This document shows positions 6,128 to 52,012 of a stretch of DNA of 57,495 bases, one piece after another. The notes under the pieces were generated by a model, which saw only the letters and a program-made list of their open reading frames with translations, searched no databases and had not been told where the DNA came from. Made by a program: the position numbers and the translations under genes. This stretch comes from a virus (Duplodnaviria; Caudoviricetes), in IMG/VR virus record IMGVR_UViG_3300034071_002361, positions 1-57,495 of that record; one strand, 5' to 3'. The number at the start of each line of letters is the position of its first letter. Position 1 is the stretch's first letter.

Positions 6128-6132
6128 CACCC

Positions 6133-6160: not shown

Positions 6161-6163
6161 CGA

Positions 6164-7392: not shown

Positions 7393-7395
7393 GGG

Positions 7396-9620: not shown

Positions 9621-9638
9621 CATGTCTGGGGCACTGGC

Positions 9639-10361: not shown

Positions 10362-10966
10362 GCCAGCCTGCCCAACAGCGCCCCGGCCGCGCGCCGCCCC
10401 GCGCTGTCGCTTTCCTCGGTGGCGTGGTCATCCTCGGCGCAACCGGCGCGTGGAACATCATCAGCCGCTGGGAGGGTGGCGGCGAGGTCCACCTCGAGGT
10501 CTACGCCGACCAGCTCGCAGGCGGCCTGCCCACCGTGTGCGATGGCCTCACGCGCCACGTCACCACGACGCCGATCATCGTCGGCCAGAAGTGGACGCTG
10601 GAGCAGTGCGGCCGCGAAGAGAGCATGGCGCTGGAGAAGGTGCAGCAGTCGCTGCTCCGCTGCTTCAAGCGCGTGCCGCCGCAGTCCGTCTTCGACTCCG
10701 CCACCAGCCACGCGTGGAACAACGGCGCGCCCAACACGTGCGCCAGCATCGCCATGAAGCACTGGAACGCAGGCAGCTGGCGCAGTGGCTGCGAGCGCAT
10801 GGCCCGCGATAGCGAGGGCCGGCCGGTGTGGTCCTACGTGCGCACCGGGCGGATGATCCCCGACGGCAAGGGCGGCATGAAGCCCGAGATGCGTTTCGTG
10901 CAGGGCCTGTTCAACCGCCGGCAGGACGAAGCGAACGCCTGCGTCGCCGACATCAAAAACCCCTAG
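10358..10966 (+). CDS. SAR endolysin (GH24 lysozyme)
   Basis: Gly/Ala-rich N-terminal TM; WEG...YADQLAGGLPTVCDGLT catalytic region; GLFNRRQDE C-terminal motif. Confidence 0.88.
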   Translation: MSQPAQQRPGRAPPRAVAFLGGVVILGATGAWNIISRWEGGGEVHLEVYADQLAGGLPTVCDGLTRHVTTTPIIVGQKWTLEQCGREESMALEKVQQSLLRCFKRVPPQSVFDSATSHAWNNGAPNTCASIAMKHWNAGSWRSGCERMARDSEGRPVWSYVRTGRMIPDGKGGMKPEMRFVQGLFNRRQDEANACVADIKNP

Positions 10967-22510: not shown

Positions 22511-22984
22511 ATGGCCGGCCTATCTGCCACCCGCCTGCTCGACGCCCGGCGCTGGACTCGCGAGCAGGCCGAGTCGCTTCTAGGGCTGCTCAGGCTTCGC
22601 CCTACGACGTTCGCCATGCTGGTCGGCAGTTCCACGTGGACCAACATGCCGGCGGCCCTCACGCCGCTTCTGGGGCGTCCTGCTGGCGGCATACCGCTGG
22701 ACATGTCCGAGTACACCCAGATCCGCCTGACGGGCGTGGTGACCACCGCAGGCTCGTCTGGCGCCGTGCTGCAGGCCCGGCTCGCGACGACCGCGCCACT
22801 GGTCGCCGGCAGCTACGCGGCCATCCTCGCCTCGGCATCAATCGCCAGCACCGGGATATTGGATACCGGCTGGCAGTCGGTCAGCGTAGCCTCGCGCGTC
22901 GCCGGCTTTGTCGACGTCCTTGGTTCCGGGGGTGACGGCGCGGCCGACCCTGTCCTCGGAGCCCTGACGCTGTGGGTACGCTGA
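22511..22984 (+). CDS. Hypothetical structural protein
   Basis: 157-aa ORF between the Ig protein and TerL. Confidence 0.55.
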   Translation: MAGLSATRLLDARRWTREQAESLLGLLRLRPTTFAMLVGSSTWTNMPAALTPLLGRPAGGIPLDMSEYTQIRLTGVVTTAGSSGAVLQARLATTAPLVAGSYAAILASASIASTGILDTGWQSVSVASRVAGFVDVLGSGGDGAADPVLGALTLWVR

Positions 22985-26822: not shown

Positions 26823-27026
26823 ATGGAGAGCCCGAACATCCGAATCAACCGCCACTCATCCGAGTGGCGCCAGATCCGCGCCTACATCGAAGCGCGGCTA
26901 ATCGAGCACCGGAAGGCGCTTGAAAGTTCGCTCGTGCCAGTCGAGAGAGTCCCCTCGCTGCGCGCCCGAATCGACGAGCTGAATCTGCTGCTCAAAGCCA
27001 ACCCCGAGGAGCAAGACCATGAGTGA
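26823..27026 (+). CDS. Small conserved protein between portal and scaffold
   Basis: SSEWRQIRAYIEARL...LRARI.EL pattern. Confidence 0.7.
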   Translation: MESPNIRINRHSSEWRQIRAYIEARLIEHRKALESSLVPVERVPSLRARIDELNLLLKANPEEQDHE

Positions 27027-28038
27027 CCCGAACGATCGCTATGCCGGACTGACCGATGAAGAGCGCGCCTTTGCCGAAGGCCTTGGCGACGACTTCGAGC
27101 CGACGCCGGCCGAGGGCGGCACGCCGCAGGATCCGCCGCAGGAGGGCGACCCGGGCGAACCCGGCGAGCAGGGGGTTGACACCCCGGAAAGTGCTGACCA
27201 GCCTGAGGGGCAAGACGACCCGCTGGCCGCGCTTCCCGAGGACATTCGGAACCGCTACGTCGAGCTGGAGTCTGCCCAACGGACGTTGGCAGCCGAACTC
27301 GAAAAGGTGCAGGCCCGCGAGGCCCAGCTCCGCAACGACAACGCAGCCATGGCCGGAAGGCTCAAGCCGCTGCAGCAGCGGCTCGCTGAGTTGGAACGCG
27401 GCCCTGCGCCGCGAACCGAGGGGTCAGTGGATGCAGGCGCCGACGAGATCGCCGCCCTGTTCGCCACCGAAGACTTCGCCGAGTTCGAGCGCATGTTCCC
27501 GCACGAGGCCAAGCTCCAGAAGGAGAAGATCCTCGGAGCCGTCTCTCTCACCGAGAAGAAGCTGCAGTCGGAGATCGCGGGCCTCAAGCGTCAGCTCGAG
27601 GACTTCACCCCGGTGATCGATCAGCTCCGCACGCAGAGGGAAGAGCTGGATTGGCAGAAGCGAGTCGATGCCCTTGCATCCGCTCACCCTGACTTCCAGC
27701 AGATCGACAAGCAGCCCGAGTTCTGGAACTGGTTCAACGGCGAGTACACCGCCAACCAGCCCGCGATCATCCGGCAGCAGCTTCTCGATCCCGCTGTGCG
27801 CAAGCAGATCTTCTCGGACCCCGAATCCACCTCGGCGATCCTGACCACCTACAAGAAGGCCCGCACCCCCGCGACGACGACCGCCGCACCGCCAGCGCCC
27901 AGTGCGCCGGCAGCCAAGGAAGTCGACCCGCGGCTTGCTCTTTCCGTCGCTCCGAACGTCGGCAGCAGCGCCACTCGCGCAGTGAACATCGCTGCCCTGC
28001 CGCCCGAAGAGCAGTTCCTCGCAGGCCTCAACTCCTAA
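27019..28038 (+). CDS. Capsid scaffolding protein
   Basis: Acidic N-terminus, coiled coil, HPDF...PEFWNW motif; directly upstream of capsid gene. Confidence 0.8.
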   Translation: MSDPNDRYAGLTDEERAFAEGLGDDFEPTPAEGGTPQDPPQEGDPGEPGEQGVDTPESADQPEGQDDPLAALPEDIRNRYVELESAQRTLAAELEKVQAREAQLRNDNAAMAGRLKPLQQRLAELERGPAPRTEGSVDAGADEIAALFATEDFAEFERMFPHEAKLQKEKILGAVSLTEKKLQSEIAGLKRQLEDFTPVIDQLRTQREELDWQKRVDALASAHPDFQQIDKQPEFWNWFNGEYTANQPAIIRQQLLDPAVRKQIFSDPESTSAILTTYKKARTPATTTAAPPAPSAPAAKEVDPRLALSVAPNVGSSATRAVNIAALPPEEQFLAGLNS

Positions 28039-28056: not shown

Positions 28057-29094
28057 ATGGCACTCCAGACTCATCAGGCCTCCAACCCGGCCACCGGCAA
28101 TCCCACCAACCTCTACTCGCTTGGCAAGGTGCTCAAGTCGATCGACGGTGTCTTCGTCCTCGACCGCCTCGTCAAGGTGTACCCGGTCCCGATGAACAAG
28201 AACGAGACGGTGCTGATGGTCCGCTCGATCACCCCCGACCCGCGCCTCACCGAGGTGGCGGAAGGCGTCAACCCGCCCTCGCGCGCCCTCGTGTACGAGT
28301 CGGTGCAGGTCACGCTCGGCGAGTTCGCCGAGGTGTTCGCCGTCTCGAGCCGTCAGGCCGAGCTGGGCGAGACCGACGTCCTGATGGACTCGAAGGACCG
28401 CCTCGTCGACCTGATGCGCCGCACCCGCGAGAAGAACGCTTGGTTCGCCTTCCGCAACGGCACCCAGCGCATCTTCAACGCCACGGCCCACACCGCCCGG
28501 TCGCAGGTCAACGGCGCCATCTCGCTCGGCGCGATCCGCACCGCGGTCCGCACCCTGCAGAACGCCCGCGCGGCCTACATCCGCCAGATCAGCAACGGCT
28601 CCGTGAACAACGGCACGACCGCCACCGAGGCGGCGTACCTGTGCATCACGCACACCGACGCGCAGGCCGACATCCGCGCGCTCCCGGGCTTCGTGCCGCT
28701 GGCCAACATCGGCGGCGGCGCGCGCAACATCCCCGAGCTGTTCGGGCAGGTGGACAACGTGATGTTCATCACGTCGCCCGAGTTCGACCCGTTCTTCGGC
28801 GAAGGCGCCGGCAGCCCGACGGCGCTCAACATGCGCTCGGTGGGCGGCGCCAACGTCGACGTCTACAGCTACGTCATCTTCGGCGCCGAGGCCCTCGGCA
28901 AGTGCAACCTGCGCGGCAAGAGCCAGAGCGGCCTTGGCGCGGTCGAGATGAACGTGCTCGACAAGGCGGACAAGTCGGACGCCACGAACCAGCGCCGTCT
29001 GGTCTCGTGCCGCTGGTGGGATGCTCCGCTGATCCTGCAGCAGCAGCACGTCGTCCGCATCGAGGCGGGCGTCACCGACAAGCTCTACACCTGA
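28057..29094 (+). CDS. Major capsid protein (N4-gp56-like)
   Basis: P.N...TV...EGVNP, Y..ITHTD...DIR.LPGF.P, ELFGQVDNV.F, DVYS..IFG..A, DK.D.TNQR. Confidence 0.9.
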   Translation: MALQTHQASNPATGNPTNLYSLGKVLKSIDGVFVLDRLVKVYPVPMNKNETVLMVRSITPDPRLTEVAEGVNPPSRALVYESVQVTLGEFAEVFAVSSRQAELGETDVLMDSKDRLVDLMRRTREKNAWFAFRNGTQRIFNATAHTARSQVNGAISLGAIRTAVRTLQNARAAYIRQISNGSVNNGTTATEAAYLCITHTDAQADIRALPGFVPLANIGGGARNIPELFGQVDNVMFITSPEFDPFFGEGAGSPTALNMRSVGGANVDVYSYVIFGAEALGKCNLRGKSQSGLGAVEMNVLDKADKSDATNQRRLVSCRWWDAPLILQQQHVVRIEAGVTDKLYT

Positions 29095-30463: not shown

Positions 30464-31165
30464 ATGAACTTCCTCGAGCTTGTCCAGAAAGGCTATGGCA
30501 TTTCGCGTGCCGGGCAGGGCGACATCTTTGCCGAGCCGGACACCGTCGCCAACCAGACTGGCAAGCTCAGGGAGTTCGTGGAGTTCGTCGCGATGTCGTG
30601 GGAAGACATCCAGAGCAGCCAGCCCTCGTGGCGCTTCATGCGTCGCGAGGGAACGCTGACCTTGCCCCAAGGCCAGACGACCGTCTCCCCGTCCGCCATC
30701 TCCGACTTCGAGTCGATCGTGCTCGCTGATCCGGATGGCCGCGGCCGCTCCATCTCCCTGTATCGCGAAAGCGTGGCCGATGAGCAGACCGTCCGCTTCG
30801 TTGCTTGGGGCGACTGGCAGCAGAGCTACCTGCAGCGCGGAGCCCGCGGCGTTGGCCAGCCGGGCTGCTTCACCATCAAGCCTGACGGAGACCTCGAGTT
30901 CGACCTCGAGGCTGATGCCGCTTACACGGTGAAGCTGTACTACAAGCGCAGCCCTCAGCCGCTTCAGCAGGACACCGATGAGCCGATCATGCCGGCCAAG
31001 TACCACAAGGCGATCTTCTGGTGGGCTCTGGCCAACTACTACTGCACGAGTCGTCCGGACGCCAAAGCGTTCGAGGCGTCGTGCCGCAGGAACCTCAATC
31101 GCGAGATGCGAGTCCTGCATCACGAGCAGCTCGATGAGCACCTCAGCGTCGAGGTGACGGCGTGA
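30464..31165 (+). CDS. Head-tail adaptor (tail tubular protein A-like)
   Basis: MNFLELVQ...W.DIQ....WRFM...D..YTV...Y...PQ.L..DTDEP.MP..YH.AI. Confidence 0.8.
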   Translation: MNFLELVQKGYGISRAGQGDIFAEPDTVANQTGKLREFVEFVAMSWEDIQSSQPSWRFMRREGTLTLPQGQTTVSPSAISDFESIVLADPDGRGRSISLYRESVADEQTVRFVAWGDWQQSYLQRGARGVGQPGCFTIKPDGDLEFDLEADAAYTVKLYYKRSPQPLQQDTDEPIMPAKYHKAIFWWALANYYCTSRPDAKAFEASCRRNLNREMRVLHHEQLDEHLSVEVTA

Positions 31166-38154: not shown

Positions 38155-41100
38155 ATGCGCCGCATTCAGGTGCCGTCGGGACGGATCTTCGAGTTCCCAA
38201 CCGACGCGACGGACGACCAGATCAACGAGTTCCTATCGGGCCTTGATCAGCGCACGCTTTCCGAAGAGCGCAGCACAGCTCGAGCTGCTGGCGACATCGG
38301 CGTCGACTTCGCAGCCGGCGTCGCTGGCATGGTCCCGACCGCGATCGATGCGGTGCAGGTCGACGAGGTGCCTCGCGCTGTAACTGCCGAAGGCCGGGCG
38401 CGCGCCCTGATGGGCGAAACCGCTGGCGACATCGTCGGTGCAATCCAGAGCGTCAGCCCGGCTGGCGACATCGAGAAGCGCACGATTCGCGCCACGGAGA
38501 TGGCTGCCGGCGGACTGCGCGGCGCGGGCGAAACGCTTCAGGAAGTTGGCGCCATGCCCGGCCGCCCCGTCGAGCAGGCCCTGACCGCAACCGGCATCCC
38601 GGGCGCAGCGCTCATCGGCAGGAACGTCGACAAGATCGGTGGCTTCTTGCAGCGCGCTGGCGACTTCATCGGCGGCGACATTGCTGAGGCGCGCGCCACG
38701 GAGAATGCGCAGCGCGTTGCTGCCGGGCAGAAAACGCTCGAGCAGGAATCGCAGCAGCAGGTCACCAGTCGAGCGGCTAACGCGGTCAGCGGCTTTGTCG
38801 ACGATCAGGCGAACAACCTGCGAAGCGATTACGCCAATGCCATCTCCGCCGAGATGGGCAAGGCCATTGATGGCGGCGTCGGCACCACTGCCGAGTTCAT
38901 TGCCGACAGCCCGGGCGAGGCACTCAGCGCTGTGCTCGGCGGCTCGGCGGCCTACCTGATCCCGGGCCTTGCCTCGGCCCGTCTGGCCAAGATCGCCGGC
39001 GCGTCGGAGGGTCTTGCCACGGCCGCGGCGGTGCAAGGCACCAGCGCCGTCGTATCGGCGCAGGGCGCCGAGGGGGCCCGAGACCTCGTCATGGGCATGA
39101 GCGAGGAGCAGCTGCTCAGCGTGCCCGAGTACATGGCCGAGCGTGACCGCGGCCTTGACCACGAGCAGGCCCAGCTCGCCATCGCCAACAAGGCGTACGA
39201 CGCCGCTGCAGGCGCAGGCTTCGCGCTGAACGCCACCACTGGCGCCGTCGCCCAGCGCCTTGGCCTCGCCCCGGTCGAGCAGCTCATGGCCCGTGGCGGC
39301 CGCATCCCGGGTGTTGGCCGCGTCGCCGGCGCCGTGGGCTCTGCGATTCGCGAGGCCCCGGGCGAGGCGCTGCAGGGCGCGGGTGAGGCCCTTGGCCAAA
39401 ACCTTGGCGGCGTCGCCGCCGGGACCATGGAGGGCCGCGACGCCTTCGAGGGCGTCGGTGCCAATGCGCTGCTCGAGGCCGCGGCCGGCGCCGGAATCGG
39501 CGGCATCACCGGCTTCGTTGCCCCTCAGGCCAAGGCGGCCGAGGTCACCAGCCAGCCGACCGACCAGACCAACCCGGCGGCTCAGGCCGCCCGGGACGTG
39601 GCAGAGATCTACAGCGCGGCTCGTCAGGCCGAGCAGGAGCGCCCCAGCGCGCCGCCTGCCACCGCCCCCGTCGACGCTGCGCCAGAGCAGCCGGCGCCCG
39701 CCACAGCCTCGCCTGCTTCGCTCATGGGCGGCTTCGCCGCCGCGACCCCGCTCGACCAGAACGCCAAGCCCGCTGACGAACTCGAGGCCCAGCTCCAGCA
39801 GGCCGGCGCTGCCCCGGTCATCCGCCCTGCCGCGGAGCCCGAAGGCATGGCTGCGCTCGAGGCCTTCCAGCGTCAGCAGGCTGCACAGAATCCCCCGGCG
39901 TCGACCTCCGCTCCGTTGGGCGAAACGCCTCAACATGACGGCGCGGTAACGCCGGGGGCCCAATCGCGTCCGCGGCCGCGCGACCTGCCGGCCGTCGTGC
40001 CGTCGCCGAAGCGCGCCAAGGTTCCGCTGCGCGAGCTGAAGGCCGCCGGCCAGACGCAGCTCCCGCCGATCCGCCCGGCAGTTCCCGTCCGCGCCCCAGT
40101 CGTGGCGCCGCCCCCGGACGTTGCCGCCGCGGTGGCCGCGCAGCCTGACCGCATCAGCTTCAGCGACAACGACGTCGTCGCCCGGGCCAAGCTCGAGCAG
40201 ACCTTCCTCGGCTTCGGCATCGAGCCGGAGCTGGCGCGCACCATGGCGCAGAACGACACCGTCCCCAGTGGCGCCATCCGCGACAGCGTTACCGGCGGCT
40301 TCGACGGTCGCGCCGACGGCGTCAAGTCCGGCACCCTGCAGCGCGCGATCGACCACGTCGACCAGACGGGCGAGGATTCGTTCTTCGTCAGTGCCGACAT
40401 CAGCAACCTCGGCGGCCTGAACAAGTTCCACAACGACGTGGCCGACGAGGCGAACCGCGACTTCCGCGGCCTGACCGACGTCCTGCTGGAGGAGCTGCGC
40501 GCCACCGGCGCCGACGTCGTCCCCATGCGTACCGGCGGCGACGAGGTCGGCTACGTGGTCGTGAACGCTTCGCAAGAAGCTGTCAATGCGGCCACCGAAC
40601 GAGCACGGTCCCGTGCCGTGGAGTATGCTCGGTCCCGGGGCTTCGACCAGATCCCGCACACCAAGGCGTCCCGCACCGACAAGGGCGTGACTTTCCACAC
40701 CGGGGTGGCGCGCATCCAGCCGGGCCTGACCGTCGAGGAGATCGCCCGCGAGGCAGACCTCGGCGTGAATGCCAGCAAGAATGCGGCCTCGCCAACCAAG
40801 GAGACGAGCACCAATGAGCGACGAGAAGCGACTGGAGAGGCTGGGCCTCTCGCATCTGGCGGACAAGCCGGACGAGCTGCAGGCGGAGACGCAGCGGCAG
40901 CTGGCGGAACTGCGGGCGAAGTCGGATCGACTGCGCAGCGAGCGGATGGCCAGCGCCCCGGCGCCGCGCCGCAGCCCGATGGCGGCAGCCCCGGCCAAGT
41001 AGCCGGCGGCACTGCGCCGGCTTCCGCTGGCGCACGCATCGACCCCTTCGTCGAGTCGACCGTTCGCGCGCTGGGCCTGAGCCCGGATGCTGTGGCCATC

Positions 41101-44100
41101 GTCGACGCGCCGTCCGATCTGCCTGCCGGCGTCAGCAGCCGCGGCCTCGACGGCAAGACTGAGGGCATCTACGACCCGAAGACCGGCAAGGTCTACCTGT
41201 TCCGCGGCGCGCTGGTCAGCCCTTCGCGCGCCGTCTGGGTCACCCTCCACGAGCTGGCCGGCCACAAGGGCCTGCGCGCCCTGCTGCCGCAGGAGCAGTT
41301 TGCCCGGACCATGCAGGAGGCCGGGACCAATCCGACCATCCGCGGCATCGCCATGGCCATGATGGCCGAGGCCCGGGCTGAGGCAGAGGCCGGCGCCGCC
41401 GGCGCGCGCCCGGCCACCGACCCGACGCTGTTCATCGAAGAGGCGCTGGCCGAGTACACGGCTGCGTGGTTCACCGGCGACATCGATGCGCTGATGGATC
41501 GCTACGGCGATGCCGTGATGTTCTCGCGCCAGCAGACGGCCGAGATCGATTCGCGCATTGAGCAGGAGCGCAAGGCTGCTGAGGGCGTGGTCAAGCGCGC
41601 CATCGCCGCGGTGAAGCGCGCCCTCTTCAACACGCCGGACGTCGGCACTCGCCTGCGCATGAGCGACGCCGAGGTGGTCGGACTCATCAGCAACGCTTAC
41701 AAGTCGCTGCGCGCTGGCCAGAAACAGGCGGCTGAAGGCGCGACCATGCAGAGCCGCGTGCCGCTCTCGTCGAAGTGGATGACCGAGGACTTCGCCAAGG
41801 CGCGCAAGCAGCTTGGCCTGAGTGTCGACGGCGAGAACAAGGTGCGCAGCGTTGGCGAGGCGCTCGATGCCTACGTCGCCAAGCGCAATGGGCGAATCGA
41901 ACCGAAGGATCGCAGCCCCGAGGCGATGACCAAGATCGCCGCCGCGATGGCCGACGAGGTCATGGTGCAGATCGGCGACACCGCGCAGCAGACCGGCTCC
42001 GGCGTCGGCTGGTATTCGGTCAACTACCCGAACGCGGTGCGCCGCCTTGCGTCGCGATTCCCTGAGCTGGACAGCGACAGCGAGGCTGCAGCTCGCGGCA
42101 TGGTCAATGCCGATTCCGCTCGCAACCTGTTCACGATGATCCTCGCCGTGACGTCGAACGGCGAGAAGGTGCGCCAGAACCTGAAGATGGCGACGGAGAT
42201 GTTCGCCGCCTTCCGTGATGGCGCCAGCCTGCGCGACGCCATGCCGGGCACTCGCCGCGCCGAGGCTCTCGAGAACAACATCGAGGTGATCGATCAGCTC
42301 ATCTCTCGCTTTGGCATGGACGGCATTCGCCAGCACCTGCTGTCGGAGATGACCGTCAAGGAGATCAATGCCGAGCTGCGCAAGCGCGGCGAGAAGCCGA
42401 GCAGCGACTACACGGCAGACATGACGCTGCCGCGATCGGCCCTGTACTTCGGCGCCAAGCTGGGCGCGTTCTACGCGAACCTCGCTGGCTCCACTGGCTA
42501 CCTGACCATGGACCTGTGGTGGTCGCGCAGCTTCAACCGCTACCGCGCGAACATGCTCCCGGCTCCGACGGATAGCGGCATGGCTGCGCTTCGCGGCCTG
42601 CTTGGCCTGCCGGACAGCGCCAGCATGGAGCAGCTCATCGAGGCCGCTACGCCGTACTGGAAGGCCTACAAGGATCGCGGCTATAAGGACGGCAGCGACA
42701 TCGAGAAGAAGGCCAACACCTTCATCAAGGCCGCCGTGCTCGAGCTGAACGAGGCGCCGACCAGCGCGACCGAGCGCAAGTTCATGGTCGAGACGGCGAT
42801 CGAGGCCCAGCGCCGCCTTCGCCGCCGCGGCGTCGACCTCACGCTGGCCGACATTCAGGCCGCCCTTTGGTACTATGAGAAGCGTCTGTACGACGGCCTT
42901 GGTGTTCGCGGCCGTGACGACATTGGCTACGAGGAGGCCATCAATGAACAAGCCCAAGGTGATCGACCCGACGGACCCGCTGCACGAGGCGGTGGATCGG
43001 GCGGTGATGTCGTCGAACCCGGCCGATCGGGCGCAGAAGCTGATGGCGCTCGCGGGCGTCGAGCCGGCCGAGGACTCGCCCGAGCAGGGCGCGATGCGCG
43101 TGGCCAAGATGCGGGCGCAGAACCGCAGCCTGCTCTCCAGAGCCGCCTCCCCGGCGCGCCGGTAGTCCGTGGCTTCGACGGGCCGGACCCCCGGCTCGTC
43201 GCTGTTGCTGAGCAGTACGCCCGGGACAACGGCATCCAGCTCCGTCGACAGGCGGAGTACGTCAAGGTCGACCCCGAGCGCGCCAAGCGCATCGCCGACG
43301 CTTACGAGGCGATGGAGCACGCGCCGAATGACCCGCGCGTCCGCGCCGCCTACCGCTCGCTGATCGACCAGACGCTTGCCCAGTACCGCGCGCTCGAGGC
43401 CGCGGGCTACCGCTTCTGGTTCATCGATCTCGAGAGCGAGGCTGGCCAGCAGTACACCAGCTCGCCGTGGAACGCGATGCGCGACATCCGCGCCAACCAG
43501 CGCATGGGCGTGTTCCCGACGGCCGAGGGCTTCGGCAGCGGGGCCAGCGACCTCGATGTCGCCGACAACCCCATGCTCGAGGACACCGGCATCCGCTGGC
43601 CGTTCGGTGGCCCGGACGGCGAGGCCAAGCCGGTGCTGGCCAACGACCTGTTCCGTGCCGTGCATGACGCCTTCGGCCATGGCATCGAGGGCTCTGGCTT
43701 CCGCGCCGACGGCGAGGAGAACGCGTGGCAGGCCCACGTCCGCCTGTTCACTGGCGACGCGGTGGCGGCCATCACCAGCGAGACGCGCGGCCAGAACTCG
43801 TGGCTCAACTTCGGCCCGTTCGGTGAACGCAACCGCACCGCCTCCGCCGAGGAGACGGTGTTCGCAGACCAGAAGACCGGCCTCATGCCAGAATGGACGT
43901 GGCTCGAAGGTCGAGCTGGCGACATGCAGGAGGACGCCAATGAACAAGAGCAAGCCGACACCCGCGCCGCCGCCGATGGACAGCCCGGAGTTCGACGCGA
44001 TGGTGCGCCGGGCAGTGCAGGCGGACCTCTCCAGTCGCGCAGCTTCCCCGAAGACGCCCCGTCCTTCCGGCAGCGCAAGCAGCAAAAAGACGCGGTAAGC

Positions 44101-47100
44101 GCGAACGGCATCCACTACAGCGGCACCGCCGGGCTCACTGCGCTCGACGGCAAGTTCGCTGGAGCTGGCTCTGCCGGCAATGAGCGTCGCCGATTCGGCA
44201 CTGGCCAGTACGGTGCTCGCGCTGAGCCGGGCGACACCGGCCGCCGCCTGTACTTCTACGTGCAGGAAGGCGACACGCCGCCGCGCAAGGAGGACGTCGT
44301 CGCCGGCAACAACCGCTACGCGGTCGAGCTGACGAACCTCTACGACTACGAGGCAGACCCGCGCGGACTGCGCGAGGATGCCGGCGCGAACATGGACTAC
44401 CTCGAGGAGCTGGTGAACGACGCCGGCTTCGACGGCCTTCTGCTGCCTCCGCTCGCTGGCATCGAAGGCAAGATCGCGATCCTGCACGGGCTCAAGAAGA
44501 AGGTGCCGATCATCAGCGCGCCGCTGCAGTCGCGCAGCAAATCGGCGATCGGCGACGAGTGGGGCGCCAGCCACTCCGGCAGCTCGGCCATCACCACGGC
44601 GTCGATGCAGATCATGGCGATCCCGGGCCGCGAGATGGAGCAGTGGCGATCGCGTGAGAGCGTCGATCGACTCGAGCGCATGGCCGTCACTGCCCTGTCC
44701 GAGATTGCCGCTGATCGCGAAGGCTCCGAGGAGCGCCTGTACCACGGCTTCGAAGATGTCGACGGCCGCGAGTTCCCGATCGGTCGAGTGGTCAAGCTCG
44801 GCTTGACGTCTGCCAGTGGCGACCTCAGCAGCTCCGCCTCGTATGGCATCCGCCTCGATGAGGCTGACCAGCGCGGCACGCCGACGGCCTATGAGTTCCC
44901 TGTCGGAACTCCGATGTCGGCATACGGAGTCTGGAGCGAGGCCGACGCTCGCGAGTTCGGGCACCGCTATTCGGAGGCCATCGTTGCCGGCGAGTACGAG
45001 GTCACCGGAGTTCGCGAAGAGCGCGCAAGCAACTGGCGCCGCACCCCTGTGCGCGTCGTGTCGCTCAAGCCCCTTCGCGTCTTCGATCCTCAGGCCATGC
45101 AGTGGACGCCTGTCGGTGACGCGCCGCTGCAGTCGCGCCAGACGCAGGACGCCCGCGCTGCCGCAGCAGCTCTCCGCACGCGCAAGTCGCAGCTCGCTCG
45201 CGAGCTGACCACGAACCTGACCACTGCCGAACAGGTCAAGGCGTGGACGCAGCGCGCTCGCCTGTTGATCGGCGAGGTGTCGACGTCGCGCGACTTCGCC
45301 GAAGAGATCGTCGAGGCCAAGCGCATGCTGACGCCTGAGCGCCGCGACGCACTGCAGGGCGACCGCGAGGCGCTGAAGCGTTACGACGCGGTGCGCGACA
45401 TGATCGCGATCGCCGAGCAGGGCATGTCCGCAGTCCGCTCGAAGCAGGCGCAGGCCAATCGCCTGCTGGACAAGGTCGAGCGCCGCACGTCGACGATGTC
45501 GTTGGCCGAGCGCGAGGCGCTGGTCGACGAGCTGACTGGCGCACTCGATGAGGCAGAGCGTGCCTACGTCGCCGCAAAGCGAATCGCCGACTGGCGCGCG
45601 GCCAACGACTACAAGGTGATCAAGGCGCACAAGAAGCGCAGCGACATGCTCGACTTCCTCGCTGCCGAGGGCTACCAGCAGGGCAGCTTCCTGTGGGCAA
45701 GCAACGGCATCAAGGATCTCGCGGCCAAGGCGAAGCGGTACTTCCGCCGCCTGCTGCAGGACAAGATGATCGACATGCGCGACGTGCAGGACGAGATCGA
45801 GCGCCAGCTCGGCCGTTCGATCGACGACCTGCAGAACGTGTACCGCATGGAGAACCTGATGCACGGCAAGACCGCCGATCGCATCGAGTCCTTCCGCGTG
45901 AAGCTGGTCGAGCCGCTGAAGGCTGCGGTCAAGGCGACTGGCCTGTCTCAGGACGCCGTCGACAAGTACCTCTGGGCGAAGCACGCCAAGGAGCGCAACG
46001 CCAAGATCCGGGCGATCCGCCCGGGCGTGGACGACGGCAGCGGCATGACCGACGCCGAGGCCGATGCCCAGCTCGCCAGCTACACCCCGGAGCAGCTCGC
46101 CTCTCTGGAGGCCGTCAGCCGCCGCGTGGAGGCCGTGAGGCGCGCCTCGCTGCAGACGCTGGTCGAGGCAGGGCAGCTGACCGCGGAGGCCGCACAGGCG
46201 ATCCAGAGCAGCTACAGCCACTACGTCCCGCTGCGCGGCAAGGACGGCGAGGGCGAGGAGCGCGTCGGCGGCCGCGGCACTGGGCAGGGCATCAGCGCCG
46301 GCAGCCCGGGCGTGCAGCGCGCGCTCGGCCGCAAGACCCCGCCGAAGAACATCCTCGCCGAGCTTGTCGGCGACGGCGAGCGCGCCATCGTGCAGGCCGG
46401 CAAGGCCGAGGTCGGGCGCTCCCTGCTGCGTCTGGTGCTGTCGTACCCGAACCCGGGCCTGTGGTCGCTCGAGCCGGTCGTGCTCGAGCCGAAGTTCAGC
46501 GAGGCGACCGGCGAGGTGTACCTGTCGATCGGCACGCCGGACGACGCCGAGACGGTGATCGTGAAGCACAACGGCAAGCCGTACCGCGTGCAGATCAAGC
46601 ACCCGCGATTGGTCGAGGCGCTGAAGAACACTGGCGTCACTGGCACCGAGTGGGCGGTGAAGTACATCGGCTGGGTCAACCGCTGGTTCTCCGCGGTCTT
46701 CACCCGGTTCAACCCGGGCTTCGTGCCGGTGAACCTTGCGCGCGACCTGCTGCAGGGCGCGAGCGGCCTGTACGCGGAGCTGGGCGCCAAGAGCGCCGGC
46801 GTTGTGCTGGCCAACTGGCGCGCCGCCTTCGCTGCTTCGTATCGCGATTCGCGCGGCCAGCGCGGCGACAGCACCATTGCCGACGACAAGAAGGCCATGG
46901 TCGACTGGGCCCGCGAGTTCGCAGAGCAGGGCGGCAAGACCGGCTACACCGCAATGGAAGACTCGGACACGCTGCAGCAGAAGATCGAGGACTCGATGCT
47001 CCCGATCGCTGACGTCGTGCGCAAGCACAAGGGCAACCCGATCCCGGTGCTCGCACAGGTCTTCGAGCGCAGCGACACGCTTCAGTGGATCGAGGACGTC

Positions 47101-48516
47101 AACGACGGCGTCGAGAATGCTCTGCGCATCGCGACCTACGCTCACCTCCGCAAGGACAAGGGCTGGTCGAAGCAGCGTGCAGCGACCTACGCGAAGGAGA
47201 TGACGGTCAACTTCAACCGCAAGGGCATGGCTGGCTCCTTCATAAACTCGCTGTACCTGTTCTTCAATGCGGCCGTGCAGGGCTCGCGTCGCACACTGCA
47301 GCTCATGAACCACCCGAAGGTCAGGGTCATGCTCGGCGGTCTGGCCATGGGCCAGTTCGCCTTTGCCATGGCGCTCGGCATGCAGACGTTCGGCGATGAC
47401 GACGACGAGACGCTGTGGGAGAAGATCCCCGACCACGCCAAGCGCCGCGGCTTCATCATCCCGCTGGGCTTCGACGACGACGGCACCGCCCGCTACATCT
47501 CGATCCCGATGCCGTTCGGCTTCAACGTGTTCCCGGCGACTGGCGGCTACCTCGCCAACTACCTGAGCCCGAACTGGCGCGGCCGCATGGGCGACTCGCC
47601 GATCAAGCACGGCACCGAGGCGATGGCATACATGACCTCGACTGCGATCGACGCAGTGAGCCCTGTCCCGGTCGGCGAGGAGGGCTGGTTCCAGCCGACG
47701 CTGGTCCGCCTCTACACCAACCTCGAGCGCAACAAGGACGACCTCGGCCGGCGCATTCGCCCGAGCGAGGACTTCAGTGAGTTCGACCTGCCGCGCGCCG
47801 CGCTTTACACGCCGGGCACGCCGGAGTCGCTGGTGCTTATCGCCAAGGGCCTGAACCGCCTCGGCGGCGGCGATGACCTGACCCCGCCGAAGCTTGCGCC
47901 AAGCTTCACCGACGTCAGCCCGAACGACCTCGAGTACCTGCTTGGCCAGTTCACTGGCGGCCCGGGAACGGTGCTGCTGCAGTCGACGCGTGCAGCGACG
48001 CGCGAGCTGGCGATCGGCGACATGGCCAGCTTCGACATCCCGGTCGTGCGTGCGGTGTCCGGTGGCGTGCGCCCTGAGCAGCGCGAGGCTGCGCGCTTCT
48101 ACGACAACAAGGACACCTACGAGCGCAACCTCGAGCGCATCCAAGTGGCCTATGCCGAAGGTGGTATCGAGGAGATGCGTCGCGTGCAGGCCGAGCTTGG
48201 CCCGGCCTACGCGGGCATCGATCCGAAGATTCGCAAGACGACCACGGAGAACGGCGAAGCCGGCACTGCGTTCGTCAACGCCAGCGGCCAGCCTCAGCTG
48301 GCGCCGCTGGAGGGCAGCGTGCTTGAGGAGTACCGCGCCGCGGAGAGGGATCTGCGCGAGATCTCAGCGGCAATGCGCGCGGTCTACAACAACCGCGACC
48401 TCGGCCCTATCGAGCGCCAGCGCCAGCTCGTCGAGCTTCAGCGCAAGCGCGAGGATGCGACCAAGGAGTTCAACCGCCTGATGTCCCGGGCGAATGTCGC
48501 AAGGTCGGGCGGCTAG
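38155..48516 (+). CDS. Giant polyvalent ejection-type protein: GGDEF, HExxxH metallopeptidase, glycosylase-like, HDxxGH, two ART-like and LPD38-like C-terminal domains
   Basis: 3453-aa ORF with GAGG SD; motifs RTGGDEV, HELAGH..EEALAE, GWY/LAVTS/TMDLW/QAALW, HDAFGH, IHYS/LYFY, LYHG/TSAS/SEAIV, NP.F...N..RD, TVNFNRKG, LYLFFNAAVQG, IPMPFG. Confidence 0.85.
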   Translation: MRRIQVPSGRIFEFPTDATDDQINEFLSGLDQRTLSEERSTARAAGDIGVDFAAGVAGMVPTAIDAVQVDEVPRAVTAEGRARALMGETAGDIVGAIQSVSPAGDIEKRTIRATEMAAGGLRGAGETLQEVGAMPGRPVEQALTATGIPGAALIGRNVDKIGGFLQRAGDFIGGDIAEARATENAQRVAAGQKTLEQESQQQVTSRAANAVSGFVDDQANNLRSDYANAISAEMGKAIDGGVGTTAEFIADSPGEALSAVLGGSAAYLIPGLASARLAKIAGASEGLATAAAVQGTSAVVSAQGAEGARDLVMGMSEEQLLSVPEYMAERDRGLDHEQAQLAIANKAYDAAAGAGFALNATTGAVAQRLGLAPVEQLMARGGRIPGVGRVAGAVGSAIREAPGEALQGAGEALGQNLGGVAAGTMEGRDAFEGVGANALLEAAAGAGIGGITGFVAPQAKAAEVTSQPTDQTNPAAQAARDVAEIYSAARQAEQERPSAPPATAPVDAAPEQPAPATASPASLMGGFAAATPLDQNAKPADELEAQLQQAGAAPVIRPAAEPEGMAALEAFQRQQAAQNPPASTSAPLGETPQHDGAVTPGAQSRPRPRDLPAVVPSPKRAKVPLRELKAAGQTQLPPIRPAVPVRAPVVAPPPDVAAAVAAQPDRISFSDNDVVARAKLEQTFLGFGIEPELARTMAQNDTVPSGAIRDSVTGGFDGRADGVKSGTLQRAIDHVDQTGEDSFFVSADISNLGGLNKFHNDVADEANRDFRGLTDVLLEELRATGADVVPMRTGGDEVGYVVVNASQEAVNAATERARSRAVEYARSRGFDQIPHTKASRTDKGVTFHTGVARIQPGLTVEEIAREADLGVNASKNAASPTKETSTNERREATGEAGPLASGGQAGRAAGGDAAAAGGTAGEVGSTAQRADGQRPGAAPQPDGGSPGQVAGGTAPASAGARIDPFVESTVRALGLSPDAVAIVDAPSDLPAGVSSRGLDGKTEGIYDPKTGKVYLFRGALVSPSRAVWVTLHELAGHKGLRALLPQEQFARTMQEAGTNPTIRGIAMAMMAEARAEAEAGAAGARPATDPTLFIEEALAEYTAAWFTGDIDALMDRYGDAVMFSRQQTAEIDSRIEQERKAAEGVVKRAIAAVKRALFNTPDVGTRLRMSDAEVVGLISNAYKSLRAGQKQAAEGATMQSRVPLSSKWMTEDFAKARKQLGLSVDGENKVRSVGEALDAYVAKRNGRIEPKDRSPEAMTKIAAAMADEVMVQIGDTAQQTGSGVGWYSVNYPNAVRRLASRFPELDSDSEAAARGMVNADSARNLFTMILAVTSNGEKVRQNLKMATEMFAAFRDGASLRDAMPGTRRAEALENNIEVIDQLISRFGMDGIRQHLLSEMTVKEINAELRKRGEKPSSDYTADMTLPRSALYFGAKLGAFYANLAGSTGYLTMDLWWSRSFNRYRANMLPAPTDSGMAALRGLLGLPDSASMEQLIEAATPYWKAYKDRGYKDGSDIEKKANTFIKAAVLELNEAPTSATERKFMVETAIEAQRRLRRRGVDLTLADIQAALWYYEKRLYDGLGVRGRDDIGYEEAINEQAQGDRPDGPAARGGGSGGDVVEPGRSGAEADGARGRRAGRGLARAGRDARGQDAGAEPQPALQSRLPGAPVVRGFDGPDPRLVAVAEQYARDNGIQLRRQAEYVKVDPERAKRIADAYEAMEHAPNDPRVRAAYRSLIDQTLAQYRALEAAGYRFWFIDLESEAGQQYTSSPWNAMRDIRANQRMGVFPTAEGFGSGASDLDVADNPMLEDTGIRWPFGGPDGEAKPVLANDLFRAVHDAFGHGIEGSGFRADGEENAWQAHVRLFTGDAVAAITSETRGQNSWLNFGPFGERNRTASAEETVFADQKTGLMPEWTWLEGRAGDMQEDANEQEQADTRAAADGQPGVRRDGAPGSAGGPLQSRSFPEDAPSFRQRKQQKDAVSANGIHYSGTAGLTALDGKFAGAGSAGNERRRFGTGQYGARAEPGDTGRRLYFYVQEGDTPPRKEDVVAGNNRYAVELTNLYDYEADPRGLREDAGANMDYLEELVNDAGFDGLLLPPLAGIEGKIAILHGLKKKVPIISAPLQSRSKSAIGDEWGASHSGSSAITTASMQIMAIPGREMEQWRSRESVDRLERMAVTALSEIAADREGSEERLYHGFEDVDGREFPIGRVVKLGLTSASGDLSSSASYGIRLDEADQRGTPTAYEFPVGTPMSAYGVWSEADAREFGHRYSEAIVAGEYEVTGVREERASNWRRTPVRVVSLKPLRVFDPQAMQWTPVGDAPLQSRQTQDARAAAAALRTRKSQLARELTTNLTTAEQVKAWTQRARLLIGEVSTSRDFAEEIVEAKRMLTPERRDALQGDREALKRYDAVRDMIAIAEQGMSAVRSKQAQANRLLDKVERRTSTMSLAEREALVDELTGALDEAERAYVAAKRIADWRAANDYKVIKAHKKRSDMLDFLAAEGYQQGSFLWASNGIKDLAAKAKRYFRRLLQDKMIDMRDVQDEIERQLGRSIDDLQNVYRMENLMHGKTADRIESFRVKLVEPLKAAVKATGLSQDAVDKYLWAKHAKERNAKIRAIRPGVDDGSGMTDAEADAQLASYTPEQLASLEAVSRRVEAVRRASLQTLVEAGQLTAEAAQAIQSSYSHYVPLRGKDGEGEERVGGRGTGQGISAGSPGVQRALGRKTPPKNILAELVGDGERAIVQAGKAEVGRSLLRLVLSYPNPGLWSLEPVVLEPKFSEATGEVYLSIGTPDDAETVIVKHNGKPYRVQIKHPRLVEALKNTGVTGTEWAVKYIGWVNRWFSAVFTRFNPGFVPVNLARDLLQGASGLYAELGAKSAGVVLANWRAAFAASYRDSRGQRGDSTIADDKKAMVDWAREFAEQGGKTGYTAMEDSDTLQQKIEDSMLPIADVVRKHKGNPIPVLAQVFERSDTLQWIEDVNDGVENALRIATYAHLRKDKGWSKQRAATYAKEMTVNFNRKGMAGSFINSLYLFFNAAVQGSRRTLQLMNHPKVRVMLGGLAMGQFAFAMALGMQTFGDDDDETLWEKIPDHAKRRGFIIPLGFDDDGTARYISIPMPFGFNVFPATGGYLANYLSPNWRGRMGDSPIKHGTEAMAYMTSTAIDAVSPVPVGEEGWFQPTLVRLYTNLERNKDDLGRRIRPSEDFSEFDLPRAALYTPGTPESLVLIAKGLNRLGGGDDLTPPKLAPSFTDVSPNDLEYLLGQFTGGPGTVLLQSTRAATRELAIGDMASFDIPVVRAVSGGVRPEQREAARFYDNKDTYERNLERIQVAYAEGGIEEMRRVQAELGPAYAGIDPKIRKTTTENGEAGTAFVNASGQPQLAPLEGSVLEEYRAAERDLREISAAMRAVYNNRDLGPIERQRQLVELQRKREDATKEFNRLMSRANVARSGG
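40814..41002 (+). CDS. Nested +1-frame small ORF after the GGDEF domain (62 aa)
   Basis: AAGGAG SD 10 nt before ATG; MSDEKRLERLGLSHLADKPDELQAETQRQLAELRAK is helical and protein-like. Confidence 0.55.
   Translation: MSDEKRLERLGLSHLADKPDELQAETQRQLAELRAKSDRLRSERMASAPAPRRSPMAAAPAK
42944..43165 (+). CDS. Nested +1-frame small ORF after the glycosylase-like domain (73 aa)
   Basis: GAGGAGG SD 6 nt before ATG; MNKPKVIDPTDPLHEAVDRAVMSSNPADRAQKLMALAG. Confidence 0.6.
   Translation: MNKPKVIDPTDPLHEAVDRAVMSSNPADRAQKLMALAGVEPAEDSPEQGAMRVAKMRAQNRSLLSRAASPARR
43940..44098 (+). CDS. Nested +1-frame small ORF after the HDxxGH domain (52 aa)
   Basis: AGGAGG SD 6 nt before ATG; MNKSKPTPAPPPMDSPEFDAMVRRAVQADL. 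Confidence 0.55.
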   Translation: MNKSKPTPAPPPMDSPEFDAMVRRAVQADLSSRAASPKTPRPSGSASSKKTR

Positions 48517-49650: not shown

Positions 49651-50403
49651 TCAGTTCTCCTCGGCGCTGGTGGAAGTCTGCGCGTCGCCGGCACCGGCAG
49701 CGTCCGCGAGTTCGTTGATTGCTTCGATGGAGCGAGGCTGGTTCGACTGCTGCTCCAGCCGCGCTTGCAGGTCGCTGATAGCAGCGCGATCGTTCTCCGT
49801 GATCCCGCGGTGCGGCTGCGTGGCGGTGACGTCCTCGGCCTCCTCCTTGGTCAGGAAGCCCATGGACACCTCGGGCGCGTAGATTCGGGACCAGAAGCCA
49901 GCGGCGCGGTACATGAACATCAGCTCCGGCATGGTCTTCCACTTCGAACCGGACTTCGTGGTCCAGCCCTCGGCGTCGGCCATCTGCCAAGTGATCCACG
50001 GGCCGATGCAGATCTCGCCCGTCTCGCGATCCTTAGCCATTGCTCGCACGGCGTACTCTTTCCTCGACGCGTCGTCGCCGCCGCGCGTTTCGAAGCGCAT
50101 CGGGGTGAAGCGGCCGCAGGTGTTGACGGTCGCGATCAGGAACGACGACGACCAGCTCGGCCGGCCTTGGATGATGTGCAGCGCCTGCATCACCTGCAGC
50201 GGGTTCGCGCGCAGGCGGTCGGCGATGTCGAGGGCGATGACGACGTTGGCCAGCTTGTCCGGGCCACGATAGGCCTCGGGCACGATGGTGCTGGCGCCGA
50301 ACGCACGGGCGCGGCGCTGCATCAGTTCCCAGTGCTGAGTCGCCTCGTTGCTCTGGGGGACAAGCGCGGCGCGCTCGGCCGCGGTGGTGATCTCGGTGGT
50401 CAT
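49651..50403 (-). CDS. RecT-like single-strand annealing protein
   Basis: IVPEAYRG...NVVIALDIA.RL..NPLQVMQ.L.II.GRPSWSS.F; KWKTMPELM..YRA..FW.R.YAPE. Confidence 0.8.
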   Translation of the reverse strand: MTTEITTAAERAALVPQSNEATQHWELMQRRARAFGASTIVPEAYRGPDKLANVVIALDIADRLRANPLQVMQALHIIQGRPSWSSSFLIATVNTCGRFTPMRFETRGGDDASRKEYAVRAMAKDRETGEICIGPWITWQMADAEGWTTKSGSKWKTMPELMFMYRAAGFWSRIYAPEVSMGFLTKEEAEDVTATQPHRGITENDRAAISDLQARLEQQSNQPRSIEAINELADAAGAGDAQTSTSAEEN

Positions 50404-50405
50404 GA

Positions 50406-51260
50406 TTAGCCTCGGTCGGAATAGGCCCAGCCCGGGAGGGTCAGGACTTCGATGTTGTCGGAGTAGGCGGGCCAGCGGCCGGTGCGCATGCACTCGGCCA
50501 GCTTGTCCATGGAGCGGTGCAGGATCTGGAAGCCGCGCTCTTCAGCGGCCGCGTCGATGTGATAGACGCCGACGGCGTGCGGCTTGGGCTTCTCGACCGG
50601 GAGCAGCAGGTAGTTGCGCAGCGGCCGGTCGTTCGCGGAAAAGCCGCTGCTGTAGTGGCAGTGCTGGCGGTGGTAGCCGTAGCGCGCAACGCTGCGACCG
50701 AACTCGATGGGGCTCGCATCCTCGGTGGACTTCAGGTCCATCGCGAACTGCAGCTCCTCGTGCCACCAGTCGGCGCGAGCCTTGCACAGCAGGCCGGTGC
50801 GCTTGTCGATCCAGCGCAGCGTGACCTCGGGCCTGCCACCTTCGATGATCAGGCGCGCGGTCTTGTGTCGGAGCACGGCGTCGCGCATGGCCATGGCCAG
50901 CTTCTTCTCGCCTTCCTCGACGACAGACGTTCCCGGGGGCAGAGACTTCAGCCACTCGTCGCGGATCGCCCGGTTGGTGCTCGACTGCATCTTGCCGAAG
51001 TACGGCATCTCGACGTAGTGCTCGTTGAACTTGTCCGGCTCGAGGATCGCAGAGTGAACGATGCGGCCGACACGAAAGTGCTGCTGCTCCTTGAACTCTT
51101 CGTCCGGGGTCTTCGGCTTGTTGCGGTCCTGCACCCACTGGAAGTAGTGGGCGGGTGTCCGCTCGTCGATGACCTTGAGGCCTGAGTTGTTGGCTTCGCC
51201 GAGCACGGTGCGGTGGTAATCCGCTGCCGGCTCGTCGAGAAAGATCCCGATGCGGGACAT
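50406..51260 (-). CDS. RecE/exonuclease VIII-like PD-(D/E)XK nuclease (DUF3799-like)
   Basis: YH...SGLK...PAHY...G...H.AILEP; E....W.D..TG..CKARADW...DLKST; YGYH.Q...Y. Confidence 0.88.
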   Translation of the reverse strand: MSRIGIFLDEPAADYHRTVLGEANNSGLKVIDERTPAHYFQWVQDRNKPKTPDEEFKEQQHFRVGRIVHSAILEPDKFNEHYVEMPYFGKMQSSTNRAIRDEWLKSLPPGTSVVEEGEKKLAMAMRDAVLRHKTARLIIEGGRPEVTLRWIDKRTGLLCKARADWWHEELQFAMDLKSTEDASPIEFGRSVARYGYHRQHCHYSSGFSANDRPLRNYLLLPVEKPKPHAVGVYHIDAAAEERGFQILHRSMDKLAECMRTGRWPAYSDNIEVLTLPGWAYSDRG

Positions 51261-51281
51261 GACGCCTCCTGATATTGCTGC

Positions 51282-51331
51282 GCTGGCCCATCCAGCCAAT
51301 GCAGAATACGCGCGGTGTACAGAAACTTCAA
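51282..51331 (-). promoter_or_regulatory. Promoter for the recombination module with a fifth leader hairpin
   Basis: TTGAAG-17-TATTCT; hairpin GCTGG-ATGGG-CCAGC; no CACGGC operator. Confidence 0.6.
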
Positions 51332-51342
51332 GAGGAGCTACG

Positions 51343-51603
51343 ATGAAGCTGCGCGAGTACATCGAGAAGGCATCACTGGATGGCGAGGGCTTGGGCCTGA
51401 CCAACCCGGTGCTGAAGCGGATTGCGTACCGGGCTCGCTGCAGCGAGCACATGGTGTATGCCATTGCGCGCGGGGTTCGGTTCGCCGGCATCGACCTCGC
51501 CGAGAAGATCAGCCGAGCTACCGAACGGCACGTGACCCCACTGGAGCTGATGAATGACAACCCCCGAAAGCGCGGACCAGCGCCTGCAAATCGCACTGAC
51601 TGA
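51343..51603 (+). CDS. Cro-like HTH transcriptional regulator
   Basis: GAGGAG SD; MKLREYI...IA....CS...VY.IA.G.R.....LA.KI..AT...VT..EL. Confidence 0.7.
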   Translation: MKLREYIEKASLDGEGLGLTNPVLKRIAYRARCSEHMVYAIARGVRFAGIDLAEKISRATERHVTPLELMNDNPRKRGPAPANRTD

Positions 51604-52012
51604 CGCGGGTGCGAAGTACCCGACCTACGCCACAGGCGGCAGCGCCGGCCTCGACCTGTTCGCCAACGAGGACGTGACCGTCCCGGCCTTCGACCGCAAG
51701 CTGGTCCACACGGGCAACATCTTCCGCATCCCGCGCGGCTGGGCTGGTCTGGTGTGCAGTCGCAGCGGGCTCGCACTGAAGAGCGGGATCGAGGTGCTCA
51801 ATGCCCCCGGCATCATCGATAGCGACTACCGCGGCGAGGTTTGCGTGATCCTGTTCAACACCACTCGTCATCCGTTCGAGGTTCGTCGTGGTGACCGCAT
51901 CGCACAGATGGTCGTCACCCCGCACCTGTCGCCGTACTTCGATCGCGTCCTGACGGTCGACATGGACGAGACGATCCGCGGCGCCGGCGGCTTCGGGAGC
52001 ACCGGTCGATGA
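51554..52012 (+). CDS. dut: dUTPase
   Basis: AGLDL, SRSGLA, PGIIDSDYRGE, GDRIAQ, RGAGGFGSTG (all five motifs). Confidence 0.97.
   Translation: MTTPESADQRLQIALTDAGAKYPTYATGGSAGLDLFANEDVTVPAFDRKLVHTGNIFRIPRGWAGLVCSRSGLALKSGIEVLNAPGIIDSDYRGEVCVILFNTTRHPFEVRRGDRIAQMVVTPHLSPYFDRVLTVDMDETIRGAGGFGSTGR

Follow-up and report, generated by a model that had tools for sequence, protein, structure and literature searches.

Whether a giant multidomain phage protein stays in one piece or is cut at defined places is the question raised by a 3453-residue open reading frame (ORF; 38155-48516, + strand, as are all of its features given below) in the viral DNA of IMG/VR record IMGVR_UViG_3300034071_002361 (Duplodnaviria; Caudoviricetes). 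The window, which is the whole 57,495-nt stretch analysed, corresponds to positions 1 to 57,495 of that record. The product of the ORF, P0001, is an LPD38-type polyvalent/ejection protein, with LPD38 recognised in Pfam. Analysis of P0001 and its relatives showed that a short peptide centred on QSR recurs at the junctions between modules, that it is conserved and varies coherently between clades, and that whole cassettes are exchanged at it. The reading favoured here, to which we give a little less than an even chance, is that P0001 is a polyprotein-like ejection protein whose junction motifs would be processing sites cut by its own zincin.

QSR motifs at the module junctions of P0001

P0001 is built of seven modules, many unrelated domains in one polypeptide, as fits an LPD38-type polyvalent protein, and six copies of QSR (residues 603, 1199, 1662, 1960, 2125 and 2326) stand at its junctions. 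The N-terminal conserved module (residues 1-605; 38155-39969) ends with GAQSR (residues 601-605; 39955-39969). The following module contains a GGDEF-like region (residues 731-877; 40345-40785), for which the Pfam match is weak (E 0.0079; 16.4 bits, below the cut-off of 23.8), and a zincin-like domain (residues 959-1187; 41029-41715) recognised from its invariant residues and an AlphaFold2 model, with HELAGH at 41248-41265 and EEALAE at 41437-41454. After TMQSR (residues 1197-1201; 41743-41757) come the four modules M2 (residues 1202-1664; 41758-43146), M3 (residues 1665-1962; 43147-44040), M4 (residues 1963-2127; 44041-44535) and M5 (residues 2128-2328; 44536-45138), which end with PALQSR (43129-43146), GPLQSR (44023-44040), APLQSR (44518-44535) and APLQSR (45121-45138), respectively. 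The conserved C-terminal core (residues 2329-3453; 45139-48513) carries LPD38 at 47416-48048 and contains no QSR. The positions at which an earlier note on this DNA had placed these motifs and the HELAGH and EEALAE pair were all correct.

The six QSR copies compare with an expectation of 0.73, and at least six were reached in a fraction of 0.0001 of 20,000 shuffles of P0001. LQSR occurs four times against 0.05 expected, a number reached in none of the 20,000 shuffles, and [LM]QSR is absent from every other long open frame of the window. Taken by itself the statistic of P0001 is suggestive, being indicative and not decisive; the weight comes from the relatives. The encoding codons differ between the copies: serine is written twice as AGC and four times as TCG, leucine as CTC or CTG, and one CAA and one CGT occur. 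The synonymous variation that the earlier note had read from CTC CAG AGC, CTC CAG TCG and CTG CAG TCG is thus real, and the use of both AGC and TCG for serine supports its claim that selection acts on the peptide. Both copies flanking M5 are identical over 18 nt (GCG CCG CTG CAG TCG CGC), which could reflect a recent recombinational insertion or simply preferred codons.

Predicted structures place the motif at the edges of domains. An AlphaFold2 model of residues 1940-2345 from 17 aligned rows showed a confident fold for M4 that starts at about model residue 21-30 and reaches about 185; QSR occupies 21-23 and 186-188, at both of its edges. A mismatch between domain boundaries and QSR, named beforehand as the outcome that would speak against processing, was therefore not seen for M4, where the model allowed the comparison. 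M5 has no homologues in the alignment and no fold in the model. In a second model, of residues 880-1210, the 78-residue disordered linker before the zincin (residues 880-957) has no motif in P0001, indicating that linkers do not carry the motif as a matter of course. The same model draws a short strand of low confidence at MQSR (residues 1198-1201), which was given no weight. The earlier note had equated all of its motifs with domain boundaries, which holds for the QSR copies, as judged from the homology-block ends described below and the M4 model, and fails for VMFSR (residues 1121-1125; 41515-41529). In the zincin model VMFSR is embedded in a confidently predicted helix (model residues 231-275, with a predicted local distance difference test score, pLDDT, above 90) and was rejected as a junction. 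Conversely, GAQSR, which had been ranked as a weaker site, is a full member of the series and is kept at the same junction in P0002-4, P0006 and P0007.

Cassette exchange and clade variants of the motif

A search with the core as query gave 120 giant proteins, and 269 proteins were compared overall, of which 149 bear the core and 120 are core-less polyvalent proteins. Eleven proteins (P0001-P0010 and P0014) form the QSR clade. A scan of homologues for the motif, as the earlier note had proposed, found 56 QSR in these eleven proteins, where about 6 would be expected, and in five of the seven closest relatives (P0002-P0008) QSR tops the ranking of over-represented tripeptides. The extended consensus from 55 unique sites is A-P-[L/M]-Q-S-R-[A/R/S]-[P/A], with P at -2 in 27 of the 55 (background 5%), L or M at -1 in 32 and A at +1 in 26. 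The eleven cores hold no QSR (2.35 expected), a weak hint that it is avoided there. Comparison of P0001 with its relatives by BLAST showed that 11 of 58 homology-block ends fall within 10 residues of a QSR (expected 3.6%; binomial p 7e-6, for relatives that are not independent of one another).

Cutting the eleven proteins at QSR yields segment families of near-constant length. The N-terminal module (family C) has about 590 residues, the GGDEF-like and zincin module (family D) about 680 and the core (family A) about 1,120. M2 and M3 of P0001 represent families B and I, the former widespread in polyvalent proteins and the latter very widespread. M4 represents family G, with 165 residues in all four proteins that have it. 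Family E (159-163 residues) is the phosphodiesterase Acb1, which acts against the cyclic-oligonucleotide-based antiphage signalling system (CBASS); in P0004 the Pfam domain Acb1 spans residues 1926-2063, between the QSR at 1913 and that at 2075. The remaining families are F (83-91 residues), H, K and L, of which H has an ending typical of ART-PolyVal, an ADP-ribosyltransferase (ART) family that Pfam detects in P0028 and P0087. These segments recur in different orders among the relatives: F-K-E-H in P0003, E-F-H in P0005, G-F-E in P0006 and G-E in P0007. After M4 alone there are four alternatives, namely the ART-like M5 in P0001, Acb1 in P0007, F and Acb1 in P0006, and the core directly in P0008. 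The suggestion that the motif is a site of cassette swapping is borne out by this pattern.

Several of the segments deserve description on their own account. Acb1 is present as a QSR-flanked cassette of ~160 residues in the giant ejection proteins of the metagenomic relatives P0003-P0007, which suggests that an anti-CBASS activity may be delivered together with the DNA. M5 was found only in P0001 among the 269 proteins; its language-model look-alikes are ADPrib_exo_Tox families (0.95), and YHG, STS-like and ExE-like motifs can be seen by eye, so that its designation as an ADP-ribosyltransferase-like module is a lead only. The M3 domain occurs in thousands of proteins: a query of M2-M5 gave 5,834 matches, many of which begin precisely at M3, with up to 74% identity. 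It holds a conserved FRAVHD.FGH stretch and is also found as a stand-alone 329-residue protein (P0209). In P0007 an extra QSR is located at residue 960, in the linker that joins the GGDEF-like domain to the zincin, where P0001 has none; the predicted number of products thus differs between close relatives.

Outside the QSR clade the peptide changes at homologous places. After the ART-type ending TGNSGAFDP.NPSI come M-QSR in P0002, V-ASR in P0028 and I-ASR in P0034, and after a diverged ending (TDN.GTF) come R-FSR in P0080 and P0068 and M-FQR in P0037. At the end of M4, AP[LM]QSR of the QSR clade gives way to I[VL]ASR or IVAQR among the proteins of the sister clade. In most of the remaining polyvalent proteins, xSR is absent both ahead of M3 and after M4. 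P0222 has nine FSR against 0.54 expected, each at a junction-like place. Within the QSR clade, P0011 and P0012 have QSAR, ESTR and ASTR instead (xS[A/T]R). The Shiga toxin (Stx) 1-converting phage SH2026 (NC_049919.1, giant gene at locus 1415-9799) has four YSR against 0.39 expected, one where relatives have FSR and one just before the core; three of the four were placed at homologous module ends, and two were matched to FSR or QSR junctions of relatives.

On a FastTree tree of the core, 30 of the 121 rows carry a motif label (QSR 10, FSR 6, ASR 4, FQR 3, AQR 3, LSR 3 and YSR 1), and the types are coherent by clade, with 9 changes, and uniform within a protein; the AQR, LSR, KQR and LQR labels denote passage of the tripeptide enrichment threshold only and not site-by-site inspection. 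Such concerted, clade-specific variation is the pattern expected if the sites co-evolve with one recognising enzyme. Significant enrichment of [x][S/Q]R was found in 19 of the 149 proteins with the LPD38 core and in 1 of the 120 without it (Fisher p 9e-5). The junction motif is therefore common in the LPD38 family and not universal, and its occurrence goes with the LPD38 core and not with any single family of peptidases.

The embedded peptidase-like domain and the case for processing

The earlier note had described a zincin motif of the protein's own, just upstream of the motif series. The HELAGH and EEALAE pair is indeed invariant, with H1032, E1033, H1037, E1095, E1096 and E1100 identical in all 21 aligned proteins; the first motif is HExxGH, one residue longer than HExxH, and so departs from the canonical zincin. 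The domain is modelled with pLDDT above 90 over residues 959-1154 and has its two motifs on separate helices. EEALAE, which would supply the candidate third zinc ligand (Glu), lies on model helix 211-228. A local profile search found the zincin-like domain in 56 of the 120 core-search proteins, mostly with HExxGH and in some with HExxH at the same columns. Foldseek against the viral models of BFVD returned other polyvalent proteins at E 5.5e-6, and the SprT-like or IrrE-like rows were weak. A viral-contig search with the zincin module found no related locus. Complex prediction of the zincin domain with a 40-residue junction peptide and Zn gave one control a higher score and was counted for neither side.

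Dipeptidyl peptidase III (DPP III, family M49) is an exopeptidase, unlike the junction cutter proposed for P0001. In the consulted description of M49 the motif pair is HEXXGH and EEXR(K)AE(D), and active members with the pentapeptide HEXXH exist. HELAGH and EEALAE agree with this pair, including its unusual spacing, and the mixture of HExxGH and HExxH in the zincin family of P0001 is a further likeness. The resemblance is confined to the motifs; M49 membership was rejected, with no sequence match in the PDB and no DPP III among the Foldseek matches listed. Scans of the remainder of the complete genome, covering 20 ORFs with PHROGs and 30 with Pfam, revealed no peptidase family, and the same scans found no prohead protease in the head module, where a scaffold-like gene is present. 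As far as these scans reach, the embedded zincin-like domain is the sole recognisable candidate protease encoded by the phage.

P0001 consists of an N-terminal module, a GGDEF-like and zincin module, four effector-type cassettes and a conserved core of ~1,100 residues. In the favoured mechanism its six junctions, each with the consensus A-P-[L/M]-Q-S-R-[A/R/S]-P, would be proteolytic sites, cut in cis or between copies by the HExxGH...EExxAE metallopeptidase domain. The cuts would part the cargo modules from each other and from the core, and the released cargo would be the ADP-ribosyltransferase-like module in P0001, and the anti-CBASS protein Acb1 and ART-PolyVal in relatives. The invariant Arg could be suited to either P1 or P1' of the scissile bond. 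Arg at P1' is usual for metallopeptidases, some of which cleave ahead of Arg or Lys. As a side effect, the conserved motif would mark in-frame units that recombination shuffles between phages. It is the combination of an extended consensus, exposed junctions, selection at the peptide level and concerted change between clades that leads to the interpretation of the motifs as polyprotein cleavage sites. Extended to the family, this would make LPD38-type giant ejection proteins true DNA-phage polyproteins, in which phi-[Q/A/F/Y]-[S/Q]-R would be cut by an embedded HExx(G)H peptidase after leaving the capsid, freeing shuffled anti-defence enzymes from a membrane-active core, with protease and sites co-evolving by clade; this wider claim is tentative and on balance somewhat doubtful.

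The main variant of the favoured reading, in which the cut is made by something other than the embedded zincin (a host protease of the periplasm or cytoplasm, a phage or virion protein that went unrecognised, or the core), is unlikely in our estimate, although it has the distribution of the motif on its side. Motif enrichment tracks the LPD38 core, as given above, more than the P0001-type zincin (12/58 vs 7/91, p 0.025), the same xSR class stands alongside different HExxH families, and the invariant Arg would fit a trypsin-like specificity. However, the PHROGs and Pfam scans of the complete genome recognised no further peptidase family, an HExxH or HExxGH motif is retained at least once in nearly all family members, and a concerted change by clade of the residue before Ser is easier to explain with a co-inherited phage enzyme than with host proteases. 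Two specific routes to cleavage were considered and rejected. Autoproteolysis in cis through an N-O acyl shift at Ser does not suit two sites that are located in long low-complexity linkers or the FQR clades, which lack the Ser, and OmpT-like dibasic cutting does not suit sites that mostly read QSR-A, QSR-S or QSR-P.

The motif might also serve as punctuation that is never cleaved, being recognised, for instance, while the protein is packaged, unfolds or passes through the tail channel, or offering its Arg as a target of the ADP-ribosyltransferase modules. Conservation of the peptide is compatible with this without any cleavage, and an invariant Arg accompanies Arg-specific ADP-ribosyltransferases in the family. 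Against it, P0004 has four QSR and no ART domain in Pfam, we know of no such threading signal, and an extended six- to eight-residue consensus that sits in exposed junctions and changes in concert by clade is a classic signature of polyprotein sites; we consider it improbable. An explanation at the level of DNA, in which a short shared border sequence drives in-frame exchange and the peptide is incidental, would account for cassettes swapped exactly at the motif and for the identical 18-nt stretch on both sides of M5, and the genome has a PDDEXK-like nuclease (DUF3799, E 5e-29) beside a weak RecT-like ORF (E 0.006, below the cut-off). However, the six copies differ synonymously and only two of them share more than the codons dictated by the peptide, the 18-nt identity uses the commonest high-GC (guanine plus cytosine) codons, and whole clades have exchanged the Q of the peptide for A, F or Y, at every junction at once, for which DNA homology has no need. 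This explanation is accordingly rated as quite improbable. The observed exchange of cassettes at the motif fits the favoured reading and all of these rivals alike. That the motif is an artefact of chance or of the composition of an Ala/Arg/Gly-rich, high-GC protein would agree with P0001 taken alone, in which QSR (p 1e-4) is no more extreme than NWR when all tripeptides are compared. It is refuted by the relatives, with their 56 copies against about 6 expected, the placement at junctions, the extended consensus and the homologous variants, and we give it almost no credence.

A number of observations weigh against the favoured reading of processing by the embedded zincin. On the side of the peptidase, HExxGH is not the canonical motif, Pfam has no match for the domain, and Foldseek found no significant solved zincin in the PDB, the best match, at E 0.59, being to anthrax lethal factor. 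A zincin of the P0001 type is missing from seven of the 19 motif-rich proteins, each of which has a different HExxH motif; recognition is therefore not linked to a single peptidase family, and a trans-acting conserved factor, or the core itself, may be the recogniser. The sections consulted of the virion proteomics of JC1 (PMC9144972) and phi24B (bioRxiv 10.64898/2026.04.10.717836) are silent on whether the protein is intact. On the side of the motif, no more than 19 of 149 core-bearing proteins pass the enrichment test, 91 of the 121 family rows have no tripeptide above the threshold, and the homologue of the cultured Ruegeria phage 45A6 has no recurrent motif. Shuffling at domain edges is, moreover, to be expected whatever the motif does.

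The closest parallels to processing by an embedded enzyme come from other viruses. RNA-virus 3C/3CL polyproteins carry a repeated short consensus at domain junctions and an embedded protease, and their sites covary by lineage. P0001 resembles them in its repeated junction consensus and embedded candidate protease, and LQ|S resembles the site of the coronavirus main protease. It differs in being the virion cargo of a DNA phage with a putative metallopeptidase in place of a cysteine/serine protease; there is no homology, and cleavage of P0001 is something we infer. In phage T4, the internal proteins and the ADP-ribosyltransferase Alt are packaged in the head and injected, and the prohead protease gp21 trims them at a short consensus. 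DdrB of phage P1 undergoes processing as well, according to the consulted text of PMC5512222. P0001 differs from these in that the PHROGs and Pfam scans found no prohead protease gene here and in that its sites lie between modules and not after a targeting peptide.

The idea that zincin-like peptidases release the domains of polyvalent proteins, with RNA-virus polyproteins as the analogy, was proposed by Iyer, Burroughs, Anand, de Souza and Aravind in 2017 (PMC5512222). The proteins treated there are like P0001 in being giant and multidomain, in standing beside virion genes and in combining LPD38 and zincin-like domains with ART and other conflict domains. No description of a cleavage-site or junction motif was found in the consulted text of that paper or in the other literature searched; the literature matches listed for LQSR all concern the LqsR regulator family of Legionella and Ralstonia. 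Self-processing was thus already proposed in 2017, and what is added here is a defined motif with its clade variants, mapped to junctions. The C-terminal core of P0001 is homologous, at 28-30% identity, to that of phi24B gp47, the 933W-type LPD5/LPD38 protein, Bcep22 gp75 and JC1 gp69, which differ from P0001 in their cargo modules; in the Stx phages the motif residue is Y rather than Q. No report of processing of phi24B gp47 or JC1 gp69 was found in the parts of the literature searched.

Phages and conjugative elements commonly encode polyvalent proteins, Shiga-toxin-converting phages among them. Their cutting, and the positions at which it would happen, have been a matter of conjecture since 2017, and the motif provides exact predicted termini together with a ready candidate substrate for an orphan HExxGH peptidase. 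It also allows giant proteins to be parsed by rule into effector units, the new anti-defence candidates M2-M4 among them, in the QSR, ASR, FSR, YSR and FQR clades, and it may explain how cargo is exchanged in frame. If processing by the embedded zincin is correct, this punctuation turns the cargo into a plug-and-play array of cassettes.

Genome context of the giant ORF

The whole 57,495 bp record is a 100% complete virus genome by CheckV and is the complete genome of a podophage of the 933W/Bcep22/GP4-like kind. The late genes lie on the + strand from ~10 to 48.5 kb and include the large terminase (22972-24429, +), the portal (24438-26819, +), a coiled-coil scaffold-like gene (27019-28038, +), the major capsid protein (28057-29094, +) and an SU10-type adaptor (30464-31165, +). 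Several unassigned virion-sized genes belong to the set as well, and the giant ORF, which lies downstream of the terminase, portal, scaffold, capsid and adaptor genes, is in a neighbourhood of virion genes. The LPD38 domain of P0001 (residues 3088-3298) scores 84.1 bits against a Pfam cut-off of 27, and the last ~1,000 residues match PHROGs families of giant phage proteins. In a tblastn search the C-terminal 1,125 residues matched giant proteins of 335 phage records at 28-30% identity, comprising Stx-converting podophages and phages of Ralstonia, Burkholderia and Vibrio. The homologue gp47 of phi24B is described, in the consulted part of its report, as an abundant virion protein that is absent from the cryo-electron microscopy map and is proposed to be an ejection protein (bioRxiv 10.64898/2026.04.10.717836). 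Similarly, the DarB-like gp69 of the Bcep22-like phage JC1 was found to be virion-associated by whole-lane mass spectrometry (PMC9144972, in the section consulted). By analogy with these proteins, P0001 is probably carried in the phage head and injected.

Four other features of the window were observed. Opposite the giant gene runs an antisense open frame of 3303 residues (38233-48144, -), which is most likely a by-product of the 68-70% GC content and codon bias and not a gene. The PDDEXK-like nuclease and the weak RecT-like ORF mentioned above occupy 49651-51776 (-) and may form a phage recombination module, of relevance to cassette exchange. Just upstream of the terminase, a 705-residue protein (20392-22509, +) with five He_PIG immunoglobulin-like repeats and PKD-like domains is probably an adhesin or fibre. 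A PAS-domain ORF (9639-10361, +; PAS_3, E 2.3e-10) is located immediately 5' of the phage lysozyme gene (10358-10966, +), and a sensor-type domain beside a lysis gene is unusual in a phage.

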